Positions 30,579-63,095 of a DNA stretch of 64,000 nt are shown in pieces (the first letter of the stretch is position 1; each line of letters begins with the position of its first letter). Source of the DNA: Escherichia phage PhaxI; the sequence record JN673056, one strand, 5' to 3'. Under the pieces are notes generated by a model that saw only the letters and a list, made by a program, of their open reading frames with translations, searched no databases and was not told the origin of the DNA. Both the position numbers and the translations under genes were made by a program.

Positions 30579-31217
30579 TTAAGGTGTTGGATTGACAACG
30601 GGAATATGGAACCTGATTCCAGAGACAATGTCCTTCAGCTGAGGCTTCCAGCCGTCCACCAGGCGGGACAACGCGTTAGAACCAGGATAGACAATAATGA
30701 TGTCGCTTCCGGTTACATTATGTTGAGGGAATTGTGACATGTATTGCTCCATCGTCACCCCTGGGTCTATCAACACAGGACCGACATCCGAAGATGCATA
30801 TGTTGCCCCCAAACCGTCGACGCCCCATGCTAGTATTCCATAATCAGGAATATTGGCTTCAGAAGTTATGGTGAATCCGAAGATACGATTCAGCGCAGAA
30901 AAATCATACACGCCGTGAGCACTGTCATATGTCAGATAACCCTTTGACAGCATATCAGCGAATATCGCGTCTGTGTCACCAGTTGCCGGAGTCGGTATGG
31001 TAAACAATAACTCACCAGCAGGAGGGGATGGATACGTGCCGAGCGCATAAAGGCACCAAGCGTCAATGCATTTCTTGATGAATGCTTCAGGCGCGACATA
31101 ATCCGCAAGGCGCATTGTACCGGAATATTCTGAAGTAATGATCCCTTCCTTCGCGCCCTGAATGGCCAGAAATACCATTATGTGTTCATATCCGGTCTGA
31201 GATGGAGTGATATTCAT
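30579..31217 (-). CDS. Hypothetical protein
   Basis: 212-aa ORF. Confidence 0.45.
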   Translation of the reverse strand: MNITPSQTGYEHIMVFLAIQGAKEGIITSEYSGTMRLADYVAPEAFIKKCIDAWCLYALGTYPSPPAGELLFTIPTPATGDTDAIFADMLSKGYLTYDSAHGVYDFSALNRIFGFTITSEANIPDYGILAWGVDGLGATYASSDVGPVLIDPGVTMEQYMSQFPQHNVTGSDIIIVYPGSNALSRLVDGWKPQLKDIVSGIRFHIPVVNPTP

Positions 31218-31834
31218 TATCTGGTCCTCTTGAGTTTCTCAATCGTGCGCTTATTCATGGCGATCACTCCTGGGTCGACCTTTGGGTTTATTGCCATGCC
31301 TTTGAAAGACACACATCGTTGAAGATATTTAGCCTTCTTCACGACGTCGGCTGCATAAGAATTGGATTTCTGGTTACGATTGAACCCAGCATTGTAAGAG
31401 GAAAGGGATTTGCGGATGTTTTGGTTGTGATATTCTAGCCAGAAATTCATTTCATCAAGGGCAGCATTGGCAGCATATTCTTGATTGACCAGTAATTTGA
31501 TCGCGACATTGGCGTAACACTTCTGTGTTTTGCATCCCTCCCGTTTCCCGACGGTTTGGACGCGATTTTGAAATGCCCCCATATTAGCCGATTTGAGGTT
31601 ATTCCGCATGGATACAACATCTTCTCCGGCGCGGCTTTCCCTCCATGATATTGCGGCGAGGGTGAAACCAAGGTCTTGTTGTTTTCCCACGTGATAGGCT
31701 GTGGCCATGGTTGAAAGTTGTTGATCAGAAAACCCATAATCACATTGGGTGGTACTTTGGGAAGCGTGCACACTCCCGCTGGCAATGGTAAAGGTCACGG
31801 ACAAGGCCATGGCCTTCAACGTTGTCATCGTCAT
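31217..31834 (-). CDS. Secreted lytic transglycosylase-like protein (SLT domain)
   Basis: N-terminal signal peptide MTMTTLKAMALSVTFTIASGSVHA; SWRESRAGED...NMGAFQ...SSYNAGFN fits the SLT ES...Q...AYNAG pattern. Confidence 0.55.
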   Translation of the reverse strand: MTMTTLKAMALSVTFTIASGSVHASQSTTQCDYGFSDQQLSTMATAYHVGKQQDLGFTLAAISWRESRAGEDVVSMRNNLKSANMGAFQNRVQTVGKREGCKTQKCYANVAIKLLVNQEYAANAALDEMNFWLEYHNQNIRKSLSSYNAGFNRNQKSNSYAADVVKKAKYLQRCVSFKGMAINPKVDPGVIAMNKRTIEKLKRTR

Positions 31835-40062: not shown

Positions 40063-40341
40063 TTACTGGCCGTTGGCAGCAGCTTTCAGACCTTCACCGA
40101 CTTTGAATTTAACTACATTTTTCGCTTCGATCTGGATCTGTTGTCCGTTCAGCGGGTTGCGGCCAGTGCGCGCTTCCTGATGTTTAACTTCGAACGCGCC
40201 GAAGCCTACGAATTGGACAGATTGGCCAGCCGCGACTGCAGTTTTCACGCCATTGATAAAAGATGCAACGATTTTCTCAGCTTCGCCTTTGGTCATACCC
40301 TGGGTTTGAGCGATGTGAGCGATAAAATCAGTACGGTTCAT
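40063..40341 (-). CDS. HU/IHF-family DNA-binding protein
   Basis: MNRTDFIAHIAQ...VGFGAFEVKHQEARTGRNPLNGQQI: HU signature; start set at MNRTDF (the track ORF extends to 40377). Confidence 0.85.
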   Translation of the reverse strand: MNRTDFIAHIAQTQGMTKGEAEKIVASFINGVKTAVAAGQSVQFVGFGAFEVKHQEARTGRNPLNGQQIQIEAKNVVKFKVGEGLKAAANGQ

Positions 40342-40428
40342 TCGGATTACTCCAGTTGGTTGTTTACGATGTTTCACTACAAGAGGACTACAGCTTACCT
40401 AACAAATATTATTGAATAAAGCGTTTAT

Positions 40429-41220
40429 TTACCGGGCATTTAGCATGTTACTTGAGCCTGAACCATCAACAGTCAGAGTACATTTCCCGGTGTTTGGGCA
40501 AGATTGCAACACCATGTTATATTCGTGGTGTAAATATTCAGGTGTCAGAGATGTCGTCAGTTTCTGATTCGCCCTGGCTTCTTGATCTGGAATTTCAACG
40601 TTCTTTCTTGCTGTATCCAAACGTTTGTCGGCCAGGACATTATCGCGGATAGATTGCTCAATCGAAGGATCTGTCAGCGCCTTTTTCACCAACACACGTG
40701 TGATTGTGAACATGCCAGGCGCAGCAGTTTCCAATTGCTGCTGGGTGCGTTCCTTGATCATCTTTTCTAACTCAGCCCGTTGGGTGTGAATTGTCATAGA
40801 ATCCAAAGAGGAAACGGCGTCCATCGTTGAGGATGCTGCGGCGGTTTTAACCAGGTTGAATCCCACCGCTATCGTGCCGTCACCGAGTTCAGCGCTCTGA
40901 CCTGCAAATTTGGTATGGAACCAAGGAACCTTCGCGACGTTCGGTGTGTAATAAACGTCCACATCCAGATCTTCCAAGGTCAGGTTGTCTTTGGCCTTTG
41001 GCGTCATTTTGGTCAGACTCACAACGGCTTCTTTGGTCGTGTAAACATCCACGCTTGAAACAAAGCTGGTGTAGATCCCCGCTGTTACAGGGTTCATGTC
41101 TACTTCACCCCATTGGGTGTGAACGCCGACATTACCTTCATCGATAACGCCACCACAACCAGAAAGTAGACTTGCAGCCAGAACCATAATTGCACCAAAC
41201 ACCAATTTCTTGAACATCAA
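40429..41220 (-). CDS. Lipoprotein with SPFH/band-7-like domain
   Basis: Signal peptide plus lipobox LLSGC; downstream region resembles SPFH-domain proteins (by eye). Confidence 0.5.
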   Translation of the reverse strand: MMFKKLVFGAIMVLAASLLSGCGGVIDEGNVGVHTQWGEVDMNPVTAGIYTSFVSSVDVYTTKEAVVSLTKMTPKAKDNLTLEDLDVDVYYTPNVAKVPWFHTKFAGQSAELGDGTIAVGFNLVKTAAASSTMDAVSSLDSMTIHTQRAELEKMIKERTQQQLETAAPGMFTITRVLVKKALTDPSIEQSIRDNVLADKRLDTARKNVEIPDQEARANQKLTTSLTPEYLHHEYNMVLQSCPNTGKCTLTVDGSGSSNMLNAR

Positions 41221-41435
41221 TGTACCCCTTCAAAAATGTAGATATATGCACCCAATGTGAGTGCGGTTATTGTAACCGAAGAAATCAGCAGCAGGAAAGT
41301 TACCCTCACCCGTTTACGCCAACGTTTACTTCGGTAGATTTTAGTCTCTTTCAAGTATTTGAAAAAGAAAAATAAAATGAATGTTGAAATTACGAATATG
41401 AACAGATAACGGATTAACCCGATCATATTTCCCAC
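41217..41435 (-). CDS. Small membrane protein
   Basis: 72 aa; two hydrophobic segments (LIRYLFIFVISTFILFFFF; FLLLISSVTITALTLGAYIYIF). Confidence 0.4.
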   Translation of the reverse strand: MGNMIGLIRYLFIFVISTFILFFFFKYLKETKIYRSKRWRKRVRVTFLLLISSVTITALTLGAYIYIFEGVH

Positions 41436-41743
41436 CCTGTGCTACGCAGATGATCAAAATAATCGTTGAGTTCGTCAATATCTTCGATATCAACCCAACG
41501 ATCATCCAGACCCATATCATTTAGATCTTCTTCAGTCAGATCATGTTGGTATATTTGAACGCCGGAAGCATTACAATAATCCGGCTTGATGTTATTGTTA
41601 TACTGAAACAGGTCGTAATCAGCCAGAGTATTCTTCAGGCGCTGCGCTTCTTCAAATGTTGGAACCTCAACATGAAAAGCGATCCCAGGAACCTGGGGAA
41701 TATGCCAAACGCGAAATTTAAGTTCAAACGGTTTATTCGACAT
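41423..41743 (-). CDS. Hypothetical acidic protein
   Basis: 106-aa ORF. Confidence 0.4.
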   Translation of the reverse strand: MSNKPFELKFRVWHIPQVPGIAFHVEVPTFEEAQRLKNTLADYDLFQYNNNIKPDYCNASGVQIYQHDLTEEDLNDMGLDDRWVDIEDIDELNDYFDHLRSTGWEI

Positions 41744-42062
41744 GGGGTTCTCCCTGAGACAGTATGGTTTTCATCTGTTCACGCGTGATAATTGTTTCAA
41801 CAAGATTCTCGTCAATCATCATTTCGTTTAACAGTTCACAACCCAGCACGTGTGGTCGCGCCATATACGGCATCGTGTTGAGTTTTTCTTCTATGTCAAG
41901 AACGCGCTTGACAGTCAGACCCATAGAAGAAAAGGGAACAGGATAAAAGAATGAAATGATCTGATTATCCATCCCGTTTGAAAATCTTACCAACAATACA
42001 TCACACCATACGCCGGACATATTACACCTCCAGACGGTTACAATGAGAAAGCGCGTTATCAA
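41733..42062 (-). CDS. Hypothetical protein
   Basis: 109-aa ORF; overlaps neighbours at both ends. Confidence 0.35.
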   Translation of the reverse strand: MITRFLIVTVWRCNMSGVWCDVLLVRFSNGMDNQIISFFYPVPFSSMGLTVKRVLDIEEKLNTMPYMARPHVLGCELLNEMMIDENLVETIITREQMKTILSQGEPHVE

Positions 42063-42690
42063 TCTGTTCCCGAGACAGATATTCCCAACGGGTTGCGAGA
42101 AATACGCGTCTAACAGCAGCAGTTGAGCACAGCGCGATTACGAGTTTCCTCTCCATCATGATACCGTTCATATGTGGTGAACGGGCTGTCCATACAACAT
42201 ACTGACCTAAATCGTCGTTGGCAGTCAGGCTAATGCGAAACTGATTACACAATTTGTCGATTAACGCATAATCATATGTGAACGTCCCTTCAGTTTTCCA
42301 GCTTGATTTCTTCACCTGAAGAGCTTCACCACGAGTTCTGAATTCTAACGTCACTCCATGAGTTTCATTGTCGAAATGAACAACTCTCTGAGTTTCATTT
42401 TTCAGAGTCCGGTTCATATTATGTACGAAGAAACGGGCGTCGATCTCCCTATTGCTCATGGAATTAAAATCGATCGGCCAAAAACGAGCGCGCATAATCG
42501 CGCCTTCTGGCAATACAATTAGTCCATTTTCACGGGAGACATAGCAAAGACGTTTAACTACAGGGTCAGGATGTTCCACACAATAAACGGAAATTCCAGT
42601 GGGAAGGATAGCGTGGGCGACAACACCAGATCTTTCAAAATATAAATTACCCTGGTCAGCCCCGATGATAATACGGCTCTTGTTGTTCAT
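42022..42690 (-). CDS. Hypothetical protein
   Basis: 222-aa ORF. Confidence 0.45.
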   Translation of the reverse strand: MNNKSRIIIGADQGNLYFERSGVVAHAILPTGISVYCVEHPDPVVKRLCYVSRENGLIVLPEGAIMRARFWPIDFNSMSNREIDARFFVHNMNRTLKNETQRVVHFDNETHGVTLEFRTRGEALQVKKSSWKTEGTFTYDYALIDKLCNQFRISLTANDDLGQYVVWTARSPHMNGIMMERKLVIALCSTAAVRRVFLATRWEYLSREQIDNALSHCNRLEV

Positions 42691-42747
42691 AATATAGATC
42701 TCTCAAATAAAAGGCGGTTTAATAATAACCGCCCTAATGTTATTGAA

Positions 42748-43542
42748 TTATTTTATATCACCGACATACATGTTCAAACTTTCATCCCATTCTAAACGAA
42801 CACGAATAGTGCCAGAATCGTTTGGGAAAGACAATTTGTCGCACATATGACGATTTGCATATGTTCCGCTCTTATTAACAGGATAATCTTTACCTTCACC
42901 GATTGCGAATCGTTTGAAGTTCCGACTCACCATCATATTGATGTTAGGCCACTGCAATTGTTCCCGTAGGGTTTTGCACAATATAATCTTCCCATTAGAC
43001 CGGAAAGACACGAATAAATCATTTGGTGAAGAAAATCGCCTTTCTTGCGGGCATAATTGCCTGATTGAAATAAACTCAGATTCTTCTTTATTCTCAACTG
43101 GAGACTTCACGGGTTCTTCTTTTCGTTTTTCTGCATATTGCTCAACAGCCTTTTGGCTGATAGGCGGCAGATCAATAGAAGGGGAGATGACTGCGGGCTT
43201 AACGACTGGTGAAGTACGAGCAGCAACAAGTTTTTCCTGAGCTTCCAGAATTCTCTCTTGGCGAGATTTTGGTCGAGTATCAACCTTGGAGCTGAAATCA
43301 CAAACCGTAACCCAATCACCCTGATCATTGCGCTTGGCAACCAGAGTCAGTTTATAGATGATGCCCTGCAGCTTGCTTTCGCGCATAGTGTCTGCGAACC
43401 AGAAAGCACAACCCTGCTCGAACTTTTCAGCGAAGATGACGCGTCCGTCTTCGTGAATCAGAATGACCTTTGCTTTGTTGGGCGCGAACATCTTATTCTT
43501 TTCAATGATCGATTCGGCGATCTTTTTGGTAATAATCATCAC
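42748..43542 (-). CDS. Hypothetical protein
   Basis: 264-aa ORF. Confidence 0.45.
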   Translation of the reverse strand: MMIITKKIAESIIEKNKMFAPNKAKVILIHEDGRVIFAEKFEQGCAFWFADTMRESKLQGIIYKLTLVAKRNDQGDWVTVCDFSSKVDTRPKSRQERILEAQEKLVAARTSPVVKPAVISPSIDLPPISQKAVEQYAEKRKEEPVKSPVENKEESEFISIRQLCPQERRFSSPNDLFVSFRSNGKIILCKTLREQLQWPNINMMVSRNFKRFAIGEGKDYPVNKSGTYANRHMCDKLSFPNDSGTIRVRLEWDESLNMYVGDIK

Positions 43543-43589
43543 GAAGTATTTCCTTTCAGTTCAATGGAAGTTAAATTTTAACCTGAAAA

Positions 43590-43910
43590 TTATCTTTGAT
43601 TTCCAACGAAATTAGTCGCTATTTCCCGACACATAGTCAGATCTTTGATCGTCTGTTTGCTATTGTCGGCAGCGGACTCCATCATTGACAAATCCAAAGC
43701 ATTCTCTATTTGATCCACGCTGTAGAGATCAAGGCGTTTCAACTCACCTTCATAATCTGATAAAAGGATGGATGTATCTTTATCATCAGGGTGAAATTGT
43801 TGATAAGTAGACAACCAGGCCGCACACATATTCAATTTGCTAGCCGGAGTTGCCACAACTTGGAATGATGCCAACATAGAAAAGAATAACAAGAATATTA
43901 TGTTTCTCAT
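43590..43910 (-). CDS. Small secreted protein
   Basis: N-terminal signal peptide MRNIIFLLFFSMLASFQVVA. Confidence 0.4.
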   Translation of the reverse strand: MRNIIFLLFFSMLASFQVVATPASKLNMCAAWLSTYQQFHPDDKDTSILLSDYEGELKRLDLYSVDQIENALDLSMMESAADNSKQTIKDLTMCREIATNFVGNQR

Positions 43911-44596
43911 CTTTCGTTCTCCTTCATCATATTATCACAGTCAATTCTTGTTTGCTTGAGTTCACGGGCAAGCCTGGGATCATCAAGATTGACAGACAAA
44001 TTAGTGGAAAGATCTTTCAAACCATTCTGAACACGGTCTTCATAATAATGATCATTTTCCACCAGCCATGCTCTCAGGCCAAGGGCGCGAGTCCGCCATT
44101 CCTTTTTCAAACGTCGATCTGATTCTTGATCAGCACTGTATTCAAATACTCGGATACATTGGTTGCCATCATTGATGAGATCCAGCTGACGTCGGCCAAC
44201 CTGCACACCTTTTTGTAATGCTGGAGAAGGAAGAGAACGGCACTGTCTTACGGTCATTCGTCCTTGTGTGCCCATACGACCAGTCATGATGAGATCGCCA
44301 GCCTCCATGCCTCCTCGATTAAATTCTTTGTCGTTCATATATCCTTTCAGGTTGAACGCGCCTTGCTTATATCGATTAAACTCAATACCAGCATTTACAA
44401 CGGCATCTGTGACATTACCTGTGGCCCAGAGTTCAGCAAAGTTCTCTATGGAACCAGTTTTGTCTATAGCGACGGCTTGGGAGAACCCAGCACAGTAGGA
44501 AAGATCAGACCACAGTTTTTCACCTGTGGAGTTCAGCTTGGCGGTGGCAGGAAGTGCCAGACCAGCCAGCACAACCCCGATGATTAAACGTTTCAT
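43907..44596 (-). CDS. Secreted protein
   Basis: Start set at MKRLIIGVVLAGLALPATA (signal peptide) with TAAGGAG RBS; the track ORF extends to 44761. Confidence 0.45.
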   Translation of the reverse strand: MKRLIIGVVLAGLALPATAKLNSTGEKLWSDLSYCAGFSQAVAIDKTGSIENFAELWATGNVTDAVVNAGIEFNRYKQGAFNLKGYMNDKEFNRGGMEAGDLIMTGRMGTQGRMTVRQCRSLPSPALQKGVQVGRRQLDLINDGNQCIRVFEYSADQESDRRLKKEWRTRALGLRAWLVENDHYYEDRVQNGLKDLSTNLSVNLDDPRLARELKQTRIDCDNMMKENER

Positions 44597-44675: not shown

Positions 44676-45125
44676 TCAGAAACGGGTATCGCTGACCGTT
44701 CTGTATCGCACACCCTGAAACTGTTTAGCGAGTTTAACAAATTCCATCGCTGGCAAATCAACTTTGTAGACCTTCATGCGCTGTTTGCCGTCCATGTTCA
44801 ACGCAGCGACAAATCGGTGAGACCCGTCAACAACGTAATTGTCAGAAGACACCCAAACTCGACCCATGGGCTTCTTATTTCTGATCTGCTTCATAATCTT
44901 CCAGACCTTCATTTTATTGATTTCGTTCTGGGTAAGACGAAGCATTTTGATGGGCACTTGCGCAGCATCTATGGACACGCCGTTGTCTTCAAGATATTTG
45001 TGAAAATCTTCTTGTTTGTCGGCATCGATTTGCGGCATAGAAGAACGAGAAAGCCCGAGGTTCCCAACAGGAATCCTCAGGCCATTTATGATATTCATCC
45101 AGTCAATAAAGGATGTAAGGAACAT
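44676..45125 (-). CDS. ParB-like nuclease domain protein
   Basis: YVVDGSHRFVAA matches the ParB/Srx-fold GxHR motif; 149 aa. Confidence 0.5.
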   Translation of the reverse strand: MFLTSFIDWMNIINGLRIPVGNLGLSRSSMPQIDADKQEDFHKYLEDNGVSIDAAQVPIKMLRLTQNEINKMKVWKIMKQIRNKKPMGRVWVSSDNYVVDGSHRFVAALNMDGKQRMKVYKVDLPAMEFVKLAKQFQGVRYRTVSDTRF

Positions 45126-45162: not shown

Positions 45163-45441
45163 TCATTCGGACTTAAACAGCAATTCGCGAACAGAAGTCC
45201 CAACGATATTTTGGGCGTTCAACAAACGAGTTAAATCATCCATGTCGTATGCTGAATTGGTGACATGGCCCAAGATAATCGCCAACATTCCCTCCAGCGC
45301 TCTCCGATTGTTATTCTCTTCAATGTCAAACTTAATTTCAACAAATCGAGATAGCATTCTGGATTGAGCATGAGTTTCGTTGGTTTTGCTCTGTATAATA
45401 TCTTTGATTTCCGAACGAGCAATACTTCTTTGATCTGTCAT
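45163..45441 (-). CDS. Hypothetical protein
   Basis: 92 aa; preceded by a promoter/stem-loop/RBS cassette (AAGGAACTATATCATG). Confidence 0.4.
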   Translation of the reverse strand: MTDQRSIARSEIKDIIQSKTNETHAQSRMLSRFVEIKFDIEENNNRRALEGMLAIILGHVTNSAYDMDDLTRLLNAQNIVGTSVRELLFKSE

Positions 45442-45464
45442 GATATAGTTCCTTCATTTCAAAT

Positions 45465-45487
45465 GGGCGGGGCAAAGATACCCCGCC
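45465..45487 (-). promoter_or_regulatory. Intergenic stem-loop cassette (PeSL-like), copy 1
   Basis: GGGCGGGGcaaagataCCCCGCC flanked by TATAAAC and CATTTGAAATGAAGGAA-ATG. Confidence 0.5.
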
Positions 45488-45493
45488 GTGGGT

Positions 45494-46000
45494 TTATAGG
45501 GTAACAAGTGATACGGTAAAAACCATCGTCCCATCTGTTGTCATTTTTCTTGAAACTGGGAAGACGCGAGGCTGACAGAATATCCATTCTTTCTCCATGG
45601 ACGCCAAGTCCAGCATATCCATTTCTGATTCATCGCCTTTGTTCACAAATTTTTCTAGAGAACCAAAGACATTAAGCCCCTCTGGGAGTCCGTTTCGATG
45701 TTTATAACAAATGCGGGCAACAGCTTTGGTTCCATACGATTTAGAAAATTGTTTGGCCACATGCTTCAGTTCGCTGAAACTAAGACAAGAATCCCATGTC
45801 TGAAACATGTCTCCTCGTTCAAACATCATCTCCAAACGCGCAACGTCCTCTTTAGGCAACCCGCGATAAAGTGTGGTCATCTGCGGTTCGCGTAATTCTT
45901 GCACCAGACCACGGATGGCAGGGGAAACAGTGCCAGGGCGCATGATGTGGGACTTATCATGGACGAGGTAAAATAAATCTTGAATTTGTTGATCGGTCAT
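45494..46000 (-). CDS. Hypothetical protein
   Basis: 168 aa; preceded by a second copy of the same cassette. Confidence 0.45.
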   Translation of the reverse strand: MTDQQIQDLFYLVHDKSHIMRPGTVSPAIRGLVQELREPQMTTLYRGLPKEDVARLEMMFERGDMFQTWDSCLSFSELKHVAKQFSKSYGTKAVARICYKHRNGLPEGLNVFGSLEKFVNKGDESEMDMLDLASMEKEWIFCQPRVFPVSRKMTTDGTMVFTVSLVTL

Positions 46001-46024
46001 GATGTATTTCCTTCATTTCAAATA

Positions 46025-46047
46025 GGCGGGGTAATCATACCCCACCC
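46025..46047 (-). promoter_or_regulatory. Intergenic stem-loop cassette (PeSL-like), copy 2
   Basis: GGCGGGGtaatcataCCCCACC flanked by TATAAC and TATTTGAAATGAAGGAA-ATG; near-identical to copy 1. Confidence 0.5.
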
Positions 46048-46059
46048 TAAGTTATAGAA

Positions 46060-61913: not shown

Positions 61914-62411
61914 TTATTGTTTATCAATTTCGCGGGTGACGCGAGTCGGAGTCAGTTTCAAATATTTGAACGTAACAGTCGTGACCAGTTGGGGAACCGC
62001 AGCATCCACATCCACCAATACGTTGTCCAAAGCTGTGGGACGGGCTTCTTCCAACAACAATTGTAGACCAATAGGTCGATTCATGTTATCAAGAAGGTCG
62101 ATGGTGATGTCGCGGCTGACAGCTAAATCAGATCCAGCATTGGACGCAATCCAATTGTAAATCTGTTCCCAGTTGTACCAACTCTCATCGATAACGAACG
62201 TAAATACGATGGGGTCATACGTGAGACGTTCTGAAGGTATAGAGTTTAGGACATCGCCAGGGGATGGGCCTTCGATACCTTCAGAATACACGCCAGGGAT
62301 ACTGAAGTCATGTATCGAACGGGTTAACAGCACCAGGTCTCCGATAGTTAAGCGCCATTTATCGGAAGCCGCGAAATTAGGATTTTCGTTTTTGAATTGT
62401 ACACCTGTCAT
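61914..62411 (-). CDS. Hypothetical protein
   Basis: 165-aa ORF. Confidence 0.4.
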   Translation of the reverse strand: MTGVQFKNENPNFAASDKWRLTIGDLVLLTRSIHDFSIPGVYSEGIEGPSPGDVLNSIPSERLTYDPIVFTFVIDESWYNWEQIYNWIASNAGSDLAVSRDITIDLLDNMNRPIGLQLLLEEARPTALDNVLVDVDAAVPQLVTTVTFKYLKLTPTRVTREIDKQ

Positions 62412-62471
62412 GTTAGCACCTTTGCTGTGGAGAACGTTTTAGTGTTCCTGATACGTGGATTCAGAAAATGG

Positions 62472-63095
62472 ATCATGACGATGATAATGGTTCTTGTACT
62501 TACAAGCTGCCGTATCTTTGTCACGTCCGTCATTTCTGTCACCGATCTTTGGGATCCTGAAATCAGAACTATACCAGTCAATATTTCTGCTGATGTCGAC
62601 AAATGTAATAAAAAGTTACTGAATCAAGTTGTGGCAGACTTCCAGAATTTCCAAACCATACAAGTCGTCGGTTGTTTTTATGATAACAACCAGGCGTTGA
62701 GACCGTACTGGAAAACCACGATCCCTCTATTGAGGAAAGGTGATGAGGGAAAAATCCCTTATCTGTCTGCCAGTATTTACTACTCACAAAACAACAGCAT
62801 CATAGCCACATTCAATCCATCTTTCTTTGAAAAATTGAGGAGATATACAACAGCAAGAAATGTGGAATTGACAATGGATATCACGATATCTTTTCAGATA
62901 ATTAACAACACAAAAACGCCTATTCGGATTGCTACTCAAGGCGTTTTTGTGAATGGGTCTGCTGTTGGAAACGAGATGAACATCTATGAGATAAGGCCAG
63001 GGGGTAAGGTTTGGATTCGCCTGAGCGATGTTGGAGTGGACTCCCTGATGATCGAAGGCATCGAACCAGTGGGAGTCCTCCCTGCTCGTCATTGA
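62472..63095 (+). CDS. Putative lipoprotein (plus strand)
   Basis: Internal start giving MTMIMVLVLTSC with lipobox-like LTSC; the track ORF starts at 62397; start uncertain. Confidence 0.35.
   Translation: MMTMIMVLVLTSCRIFVTSVISVTDLWDPEIRTIPVNISADVDKCNKKLLNQVVADFQNFQTIQVVGCFYDNNQALRPYWKTTIPLLRKGDEGKIPYLSASIYYSQNNSIIATFNPSFFEKLRRYTTARNVELTMDITISFQIINNTKTPIRIATQGVFVNGSAVGNEMNIYEIRPGGKVWIRLSDVGVDSLMIEGIEPVGVLPARH

Follow-up and report, generated by a model that had tools for sequence, protein, structure and literature searches.

We analysed a 64,000-nucleotide window of Escherichia phage PhaxI (sequence record JN673056), focusing on a locus at positions 40429-44596 that encodes an SPFH-domain lipoprotein, a small membrane protein (m69) and two predicted exported proteins (sp229 and sp106). 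By its sequence, the window is a Kuttervirus genome (CBA120/Vi01-like, Ackermannviridae). The 5.2 kb around the locus matched 274 phage records, nearly all of them Ackermannviridae, and its identity to the sequences of Escherichia phage FEC14 and Salmonella phage FrontPhageNews was 98.9-99.4%. The locus lies on the minus strand amid genes for helicase, HU, RNase H, a gp55-like sigma factor, recombination and nucleotide metabolism. Judged from the predicted proteins, four of its nine genes very probably encode envelope-directed products. The first-pass annotation had treated these four as a single cluster; we found instead two separable pairs, a family-wide core pair (sp229-sp106) and an accessory cassette (m69 and the SPFH lipoprotein), so that the locus is composed of two independent envelope modules plus cytoplasmic accessory genes and is not a single system. 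The genes and features, in the direction of transcription, are as follows.

44676-45125, minus strand: p149, ParB-like
43907-44596, minus strand: sp229, predicted exported, 229-amino-acid precursor
43590-43910, minus strand: sp106, predicted exported, 106-amino-acid precursor
42748-43542, minus strand: p264, without export signal (phrog_3828)
42711-42735, minus strand: GC-rich DNA hairpin followed by a T-run, terminator-like; a pattern match from a consensus scan only
42022-42690, minus strand: p222, without export signal (phrog_5426), first gene of a variable island
41733-42020, minus strand: DUF7425 protein, 95 amino acids, without export signal (PF24200, phrog_5397)
41423-41743, minus strand: gp17-like protein, 106 amino acids, cytoplasmic (PF17420, phrog_1510)
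41217-41426, minus strand: m69, two-helix membrane hairpin of 69 amino acids (phrog_11680)
40429-41217, minus strand: SPFH lipoprotein, 262 amino acids, with lipobox (PF01145, phrog_200)
40063-40377, minus strand: HU, DNA-binding protein

The SPFH-like lipoprotein predicted by the first-pass annotation was confirmed in both of its parts, the lipobox and the domain. The open reading frame (ORF) spans 40429-41220 on the minus strand, and its N-terminus reads MMFKKLVFGAIMVLAASLLSG/C. Although the ORF reaches TTG 41220, ATG 41217, which has a GAAGGGG ribosome-binding site, is the likelier start (262 amino acids). The lipobox LSG/C occupies residues 19-22 (Cys22 in the 263-residue numbering), agrees with the pattern [LVI][ASTVI][GAS]C and is followed by Gly at +2. 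Pfam Band_7 (PF01145; cut-off 23.6 bits) matched residues 25-207 with a score of 48.3 bits (E = 1.5e-12), and among PHROGs the protein matched phrog_200, 'lipoprotein' (E = 6e-55). The parts of the protein are arranged as signal peptide with lipobox, SPFH domain, helical region and C-terminal strand. When 40 homologs were combined in a profile, it matched human stomatin (entries of the solved 16-mer) over residues 144-246 (E = 2e-5), a stretch that covers the end of the SPFH domain, the helical region and the C-terminal strand 'NSTIVFP'; at E <= 0.01 this family profile found only stomatin in the PDB, and neither HflK nor HflC. From these matches, the protein is judged to have a complete stomatin-like layout. 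All 54 full-length homologs carry PF01145. A lipobox was found in 42 of 55 homologs, none of them with Asp at +2, and the remaining 13 have an N-terminal transmembrane anchor, so both forms should place the SPFH domain on the periplasmic side. In the clade of the window's protein, a Cys-x6-Cys pair is conserved close to the C-terminus, where the window's copy has it in the C-terminal strand; this fits an oxidising compartment.

The protein is no stranger to phage genomics. The first-pass annotation called an SPFH-domain lipoprotein unusual in an exclusion or envelope-remodelling role; in phages as such it is not unusual, phrog_200 being a large family and similar proteins having been reported from T4-like and N4-like phages. 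Many Kuttervirus GenBank records already label the protein an SPFH lipoprotein, it has been detected by mass spectrometry in a preparation of a Vi01-like phage (PMC10892097), and SPFH ORFs of T4-like phages were listed in 2006 (PMC1524935). A 2026 paper on an N4-like phage states that why an SPFH protein occurs in a phage 'remains unclear' (PMC13239085), and our literature search found no paper on the function of a phage SPFH protein or on its partner.

The gene directly 5' of the SPFH gene encodes m69. A two-helix membrane protein of 72 amino acids had been proposed here; the two helices stand, and the length is likelier 69. The hydropathy profile showed two hydrophobic helices around a strongly basic loop, KETKIYRSKRWRKRVR. 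The 72-residue version corresponds to the ORF at 41217-41435, and the likelier start is ATG 41426, because this codon overlaps the stop of the gp17-like gene as ATGA. The m69 stop in turn overlaps the SPFH start ATG 41217 (TGATG), indicating translational coupling, so that the gp17-like gene, m69 and the SPFH gene, with starts and stops read from the DNA, form three translationally coupled genes at the end of the island. Among Kuttervirus records, m69 and full-length SPFH occur in identical sets (136 Salmonella and 17 Escherichia phages), and the gene 5' of m69 is either the gp17-like gene or a LysM gene. A Pfam scan of m69 gave nothing above threshold and no NfeD; the only sub-threshold match was HisKA_7TM. 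We also considered m69 as a holin and rejected it: with its basic loop, the two short ends would lie on the periplasmic side, there is no charged C-terminal tail, and the gene is coupled to accessory genes, not to lysis genes.

The same arrangement was found outside the window. We read ten phage contexts of lipoprotein-type SPFH homologs, namely the window and the nine below.

L007: 108-kb E. coli-associated contig, two-helix hairpin gene before the SPFH gene
L009: 204-kb contig, two-helix hairpin gene before the SPFH gene
L011: divergent 156-kb Ackermannviridae-like contig, two-helix hairpin gene before the SPFH gene
L016: T4-like contig with the SPFH cassette 3' of rIIB, two-helix hairpin gene at L016:2820-2993
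L017: Erwinia phage phiEa2809, two-helix hairpin gene at L017:2304-2498
L020, L021, L022: further contigs, two-helix hairpin gene before the SPFH gene
L023: further contig, gene of a pilin-like small protein before the SPFH gene, L023:1329-1490

In nine of the ten contexts, a two-helix protein of 57-69 amino acids with a basic loop is encoded directly 5' of the SPFH gene, at a distance of -4 to +8 nucleotides. In a leave-one-out hidden Markov model analysis, each hairpin scored better against the profile of the other eight than 1000 shuffles of itself, and the L020 hairpin joins the two hairpin subgroups; by these profile comparisons the nine hairpins are one sequence family. The hairpin and the SPFH lipoprotein are thus a conserved two-gene cassette of unrelated large virulent phages, and the fixed hairpin partner appears to be a new observation. 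The pilin-like protein of L023 perhaps represents another type of small membrane partner; ORF097c/098c of Aeromonas phage 44RR, which bear consecutive numbers, have the same pilin-like and SPFH domains (PMC1524935). The hairpin gene is unannotated in phiEa2809, in L016 (a metagenomic T4-like contig) and in the FEC14 RefSeq record.

The cassette can be compared with bacterial systems on two levels. Like stomatin and HflK/HflC, the phage protein has a Band_7 domain and the same order of anchor, SPFH domain, helical region and C-terminal strand, whereas stomatin-type proteins are anchored by a transmembrane helix or hairpin and the phage protein by a lipobox cysteine. Bacterial SPFH genes are paired with nfeD in operons, as cited in PMC9872710, and the phage SPFH gene is likewise coupled to a gene for a small membrane protein. 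The phage hairpin, however, has only 57-69 amino acids and no NfeD or OB domain; because the partner lacks an NfeD domain, the cassette is analogous to the SPFH-NfeD operons and not a member of them. In the two bacterial contexts that we read (L012 and L014), transmembrane-anchored SPFH relatives of 33-40% identity lie amid ordinary chromosomal genes, with neither a hairpin nor an NfeD gene beside them. These bacterial relatives stand alone and are transmembrane-anchored, in contrast to the cassette, which is carried by virulent phages.

The other module is the pair sp229 and sp106, for which the two proposed signal peptides were supported: in both proteins, an n-region and an h-region lead to an AxA-type end (VVA/T in sp106, ATA/K in sp229). 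The sp229 gene starts at ATG 44596, 7 nucleotides behind an AGGAG ribosome-binding site. An upstream-extended version of 284 amino acids was rejected, as it would overlap the preceding gene and the N-terminus at ATG 44596 is kept across genera. The sp106 start overlaps the sp229 stop as ATGA (43907-43910), indicating translational coupling, and its predicted cleavage at VVA/TP leaves a mature part of about 85 amino acids. Among 37 sp106 relatives, the signal region diverges and the mature part is near-invariant, including Cys29 and Cys94. The sp229 protein has four invariant cysteines (35, 119, 147 and 220), and its relatives at 34-38% identity have different but typical signal peptides and the same four cysteines. 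The varied signal region, the invariant mature part and the even cysteine numbers (two and four) support export, and from these features sp229 and sp106 seem to leave the cytoplasm by the Sec route and to be soluble periplasmic proteins with disulfide bonds.

The structural model of sp106 is a well-packed five-helix bundle (predicted local distance difference test, pLDDT, 86.4), and a fold search with it against the PDB and viral models found no relative except the phiEa2809 ortholog. The AlphaFold2 model of sp229, built from 21 relatives, was poor (pLDDT 44.9) because the family is shallow, with word-index matches all at least 74% identical. A HMMER scan of 1.84 billion representatives with sp229 gave nine matches, all in Ackermannviridae-like contigs, and the PDB yielded no match to its sequence or profile. 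Between genera, sp229 is 87-89% identical, compared with 81-83% for the helicase. In the L011 lineage, the identities fall to 36% for sp229 and 33% for sp106, with the helicase at 63%; this joint drop fits interacting partners or a shared co-evolving target. The two proteins probably act together. The sp229-like protein of phiEa2809 has just 165 amino acids and lacks the C-terminal helical half.

The distributions of the two pairs differ. The sp229 gene occurs in 269 phage records, each at least 80% identical, and the sp229-sp106 pair in all 269 of these Ackermannviridae records, which include phages of Klebsiella (Taipeivirus), Dickeya (Limestonevirus), Serratia, Shigella, Enterobacter and Yersinia. 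Records with the SPFH protein number 179 and comprise those of Salmonella and Escherichia Kuttervirus and of four Erwinia phages, plus a few distant matches; a search of phage records did not find it in phages of Klebsiella, Dickeya, Serratia or Shigella. Phages Marshall, May and JA15 retain the order p149-sp229-sp106-p264...HU-helicase without SPFH, the interval between p264 and HU holding other genes or almost nothing. In STP55, a LysM gene replaces m69 together with the first three-quarters of the SPFH gene, so that both are lost together. By these contents, the stretch from p264 to HU is a variable island and the cassette is dispensable. Klebsiella phage May has a LysM protein without export signal in the same slot, indicating that this is not specifically an 'envelope' slot. 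The DNA hairpin at 42711-42735 separates the conserved p264, which has 39-62% identity across the family, from the island; p222, the first gene of the island, is 40% identical in May and absent from Marshall and JA15. All four exported-protein genes are nearly contiguous at L011:1765-3792 and L017:1048-3277.

For the function of the cassette, we favour the reading that the two modules work independently and that m69 and the SPFH lipoprotein assemble as an envelope structure, which in our judgement has about an even chance of being correct. Starting from the gene structures, export signals, domains, pairing and distribution read above, we infer how the proteins might oligomerise, in which membrane they would reside, when they would be made and what role they would have. 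The lipoprotein would be exported and lipidated at Cys22, and would oligomerise through its helical region and C-terminal strand in the manner of stomatin and HflK/C, so as to form a ring or a cage at the periplasmic side of a membrane. The m69 protein would be the membrane-embedded component, taking the place both of the transmembrane anchor of the bacterial relatives and of the NfeD protein encoded in bacterial SPFH operons. Together they might fence off or stiffen a patch of the infected cell's envelope; the assembly would have a dispensable accessory role, most plausibly in protecting the infected cell from entry of a second phage, from lysis from without or from abortive infection that acts on membranes, and would not be the cause of lysis. 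A role in superinfection exclusion is a guess.

Several points weigh against such an assembly. By the enterobacterial +2 rule, a lipoprotein of this type should go to the outer membrane; with the hairpin in the inner membrane and periplasmic tails of a few residues, contact between the two is not obviously possible. A pilin-like protein (MKGFTLIE..., with the N-terminal methylation motif) occupies the place of the expected hairpin in L023. The cassette lies directly after sp106 in L011 and phiEa2809, so a functional link between the modules is possible. PHROG and PADLOC gave no similarity to known exclusion or counter-defence proteins, and our literature search found no transcript data or experiments on the genes of the locus and no Kuttervirus transcriptomics.

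The timing of expression was also considered. Early or middle expression is presumed only from the position of the locus among replication genes. The T4 late-promoter motif TATAAATA was absent from the locus and occurred at chance level elsewhere in the window, and matches resembling sigma-70 promoters were not commoner than in shuffled sequence.

A bolder version of the favoured reading, which we regard as possible but rather unlikely, holds that the cassette is a new class of phage envelope system, a stomatin-like periplasmic cage that the phage builds with a minimal membrane partner of its own and that shields the membranes of the infected cell against superinfecting phages or membrane-attacking effectors of abortive infection, and that sp229-sp106 separately could be the missing periplasmic component of CBA120-like lysis inhibition. 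The cassette of hairpin and SPFH protein would in that case have a wide range, with Ackermannviridae, T4-like phages, jumbo phages and further large virulent phages as carriers.

The pair sp229-sp106 may also be taken by itself as a sensor or inhibitor that acts in the periplasm to control lysis or to protect the phage itself, either as an antiholin-like part of CBA120 lysis inhibition or, in the manner of Spackle, by inhibiting the phage's own tail lysozyme or the secreted Vs.1/SLT protein; such a function is possible, and we consider this particular proposal unlikely. Lysis inhibition occurs in CBA120 when the multiplicity of infection is high, and no holin or antiholin had been identified there (PMC3184105). 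The pair is core to the family, its parallel divergence in L011 suggests co-evolving partners or a co-evolving target, and sp106 is small, secreted and helical with a conserved cysteine pair. T4 RI and Spackle presumably fit the same general description. On the other hand, sequence searches and fold searches, the latter made with sp106, showed no similarity to any PDB entry or viral model, T4 proteins included, and in particular none to the T4 RI antiholin or the periplasmic domain of the T holin. No membrane holin candidate adjoins the pair, and T4-like phages have Vs.1 without sp229-sp106.

According to a further explanation, all four exported proteins form one early cluster for superinfection exclusion or envelope remodelling, as the first-pass annotation had suggested; we think this improbable. 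Four export signals fall within 4.2 kb of the replication arm, and in L011 and phiEa2809 the cassette is directly 3' of sp229-sp106. Known exclusion proteins, such as T4 Imm and Sp (Spackle) and T5 Llp (named in PMC9409062), are small membrane proteins, periplasmic proteins and lipoproteins, and the locus, which is not in the late structural gene blocks, encodes molecules of these kinds, including a small membrane protein with two helices. Nevertheless, the proteins of the locus have no sequence or PHROG relationship to known exclusion proteins, PADLOC found none, and fold searches, made with sp106, found none either. The two pairs differ in distribution, Marshall, May, JA15 and STP55 keeping one pair without the other, and in the window four genes without export signals and the DNA hairpin stand between them. 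A crude census of the 64 kb counted roughly eight plausible genes whose products contain a strongly hydrophobic segment, four of them in the 4.2-kb locus; as these four are two operon pairs and thus effectively two events, the evidence for clustering is weak.

The SPFH cassette might also mimic HflK/C and cage or modulate a host membrane protease such as FtsH, thereby stabilising phage or host membrane proteins, for which we see little likelihood. As judged from the anchors, the SPFH domain would face the periplasm as in HflK/C; source databases name some relatives 'regulator of protease activity HflC'; and HflK/C and FtsH are described as one complex (PMC4850261). Against this, the profile match in the PDB reaches only stomatin, the HflC name derives from a general orthologous-group label, and a lipid-anchored protein predicted for the outer membrane would not meet FtsH.

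The least probable explanation, that sp229 and sp106 are a two-component spanin, with an inner-membrane subunit and an outer-membrane lipoprotein subunit fusing the two membranes at lysis, is the one written into many GenBank records and PHROGs. In its favour are phrog_3843, labelled 'Rz-like spanin', several records that say 'i-spanin', and Marshall, whose sp106 ortholog has the lipobox LIAGC and which a survey listed among the two-component spanins as a singleton with the longest periplasmic length (PMC6139136). Like the lambda Rz/Rz1-type spanins, the two genes are adjacent and overlapping, both products have N-terminal export signals, and a minority of sp106 proteins have a lipobox. However, the lipobox expected of an outer-membrane spanin lipoprotein is present in only 7 of the 37 sp106 cluster representatives and absent from the window's copy, and the model of sp106 is a compact bundle of helices, with two cysteines that are conserved. 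The sp229 h-region has about 14 residues with a Pro and ends in ATA/K, and those of divergent homologs end in AWS/E and ASA/A; by eye these signals look cleavable, and sp229 and its relatives at 34-38% identity seem to have short h-regions with AxA-type ends rather than a long uncleaved transmembrane helix. No lysis genes are neighbours of the pair, the annotated endolysin lying far away. The same survey calls Vi01, SFP10, Maynard, SJ2, SJ3 and AG3 spanin-less, six phages that carry sp229-sp106 or belong to the same family; Marshall was scored as having a spanin because its sp106 ortholog happens to have LIAGC. Taken together, these sequence features suggest that sp229-sp106 are probably not spanins, and the doubt about this label appears to be a new observation.

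These results bear on two groups of problems. SPFH proteins occur in all domains of life and their bacterial function is mostly unclear; the phage version, which is dispensable, lipid-anchored and accompanied by a partner of 60-70 amino acids with an often unannotated gene, would offer a simple genetic handle on the action of such cages at a bacterial envelope. Natural variants with the cassette (FEC14, CBA120) and without it (Marshall, STP55) exist, so a direct comparison is possible. Hundreds of Ackermannviridae records call sp229 and sp106 spanins on thin evidence, and these therapy-relevant phages are thus still without a convincing outer-membrane lysis function.

The neighbouring genes without export signals were analysed in the same way. 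NCBIfam and PADLOC gave no match for any gene of the locus, and Rfam found nothing within 38-48 kb of the window. The gp17-like protein at 41423-41743 is a clear member of the P22 gp17 family (PF17420 GP17, 167.1 bits against a cut-off of 25, E = 1e-49, profile positions 1-98 of 98); it is acidic, and its hydropathy shows no export signal. This cytoplasmic protein carries the only 'superinfection exclusion' label in the region. P22 gp17 has been described as overcoming the exclusion system of a prophage (PMC9409062), that is, it counters prophage exclusion rather than excluding phages, and the window's protein stands outside the envelope set though its gene is coupled to m69. The DUF7425 protein matched Pfam PF24200 with 172 bits. 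In p149, we found a ParB/sulfiredoxin-like DGSHR motif, a weak ParB PHROG match and 83-93% identity across genera; its ortholog in Dickeya phage JA15 is annotated as 'unknown structural protein'.

A secreted SLT-domain protein said to lie upstream of the locus is indeed encoded at 31217-31834 on the minus strand, which is downstream in the sense of transcription. Its Pfam SLT match barely passes (21.4 bits against a cut-off of 21.3), and its N-terminus is signal-peptide-like. The protein is a homolog of T4 Vs.1, found in 2103 phage records; such homologs are often mislabelled RegB or endoribonuclease because of the neighbouring gene, and phrog_600 is predicted to be lysozyme-like (PMC9409062).

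Some further observations were made in and around the window. A 65-nucleotide direct repeat, 83% identical, lies at 45430-45494 and 45989-46053, just 5' of two neighbouring minus-strand genes. Read in the direction of these genes, the repeat carries a GC-rich hairpin (GGCGGGG-N8-CCCCGCC) together with a ribosome-binding site and the codons with which the two genes begin (MTDQ), and we take it to resemble the cassettes of promoter and stem-loop found on either side of shuffled ORFs in T4-type phages. In the ORF at 62397-63095 on the plus strand, an internal start gives MTMIMVLVLTSC..., a possible lipoprotein with the lipobox LTSC. The records MN871475.1 ('Pseudomonas phage Pa-sanjiao') and OR844945.1 ('Enterococcus phage Efm 3-10') contain near-identical Kuttervirus sequence; probably the hosts are mislabelled or the sequences stem from contamination.

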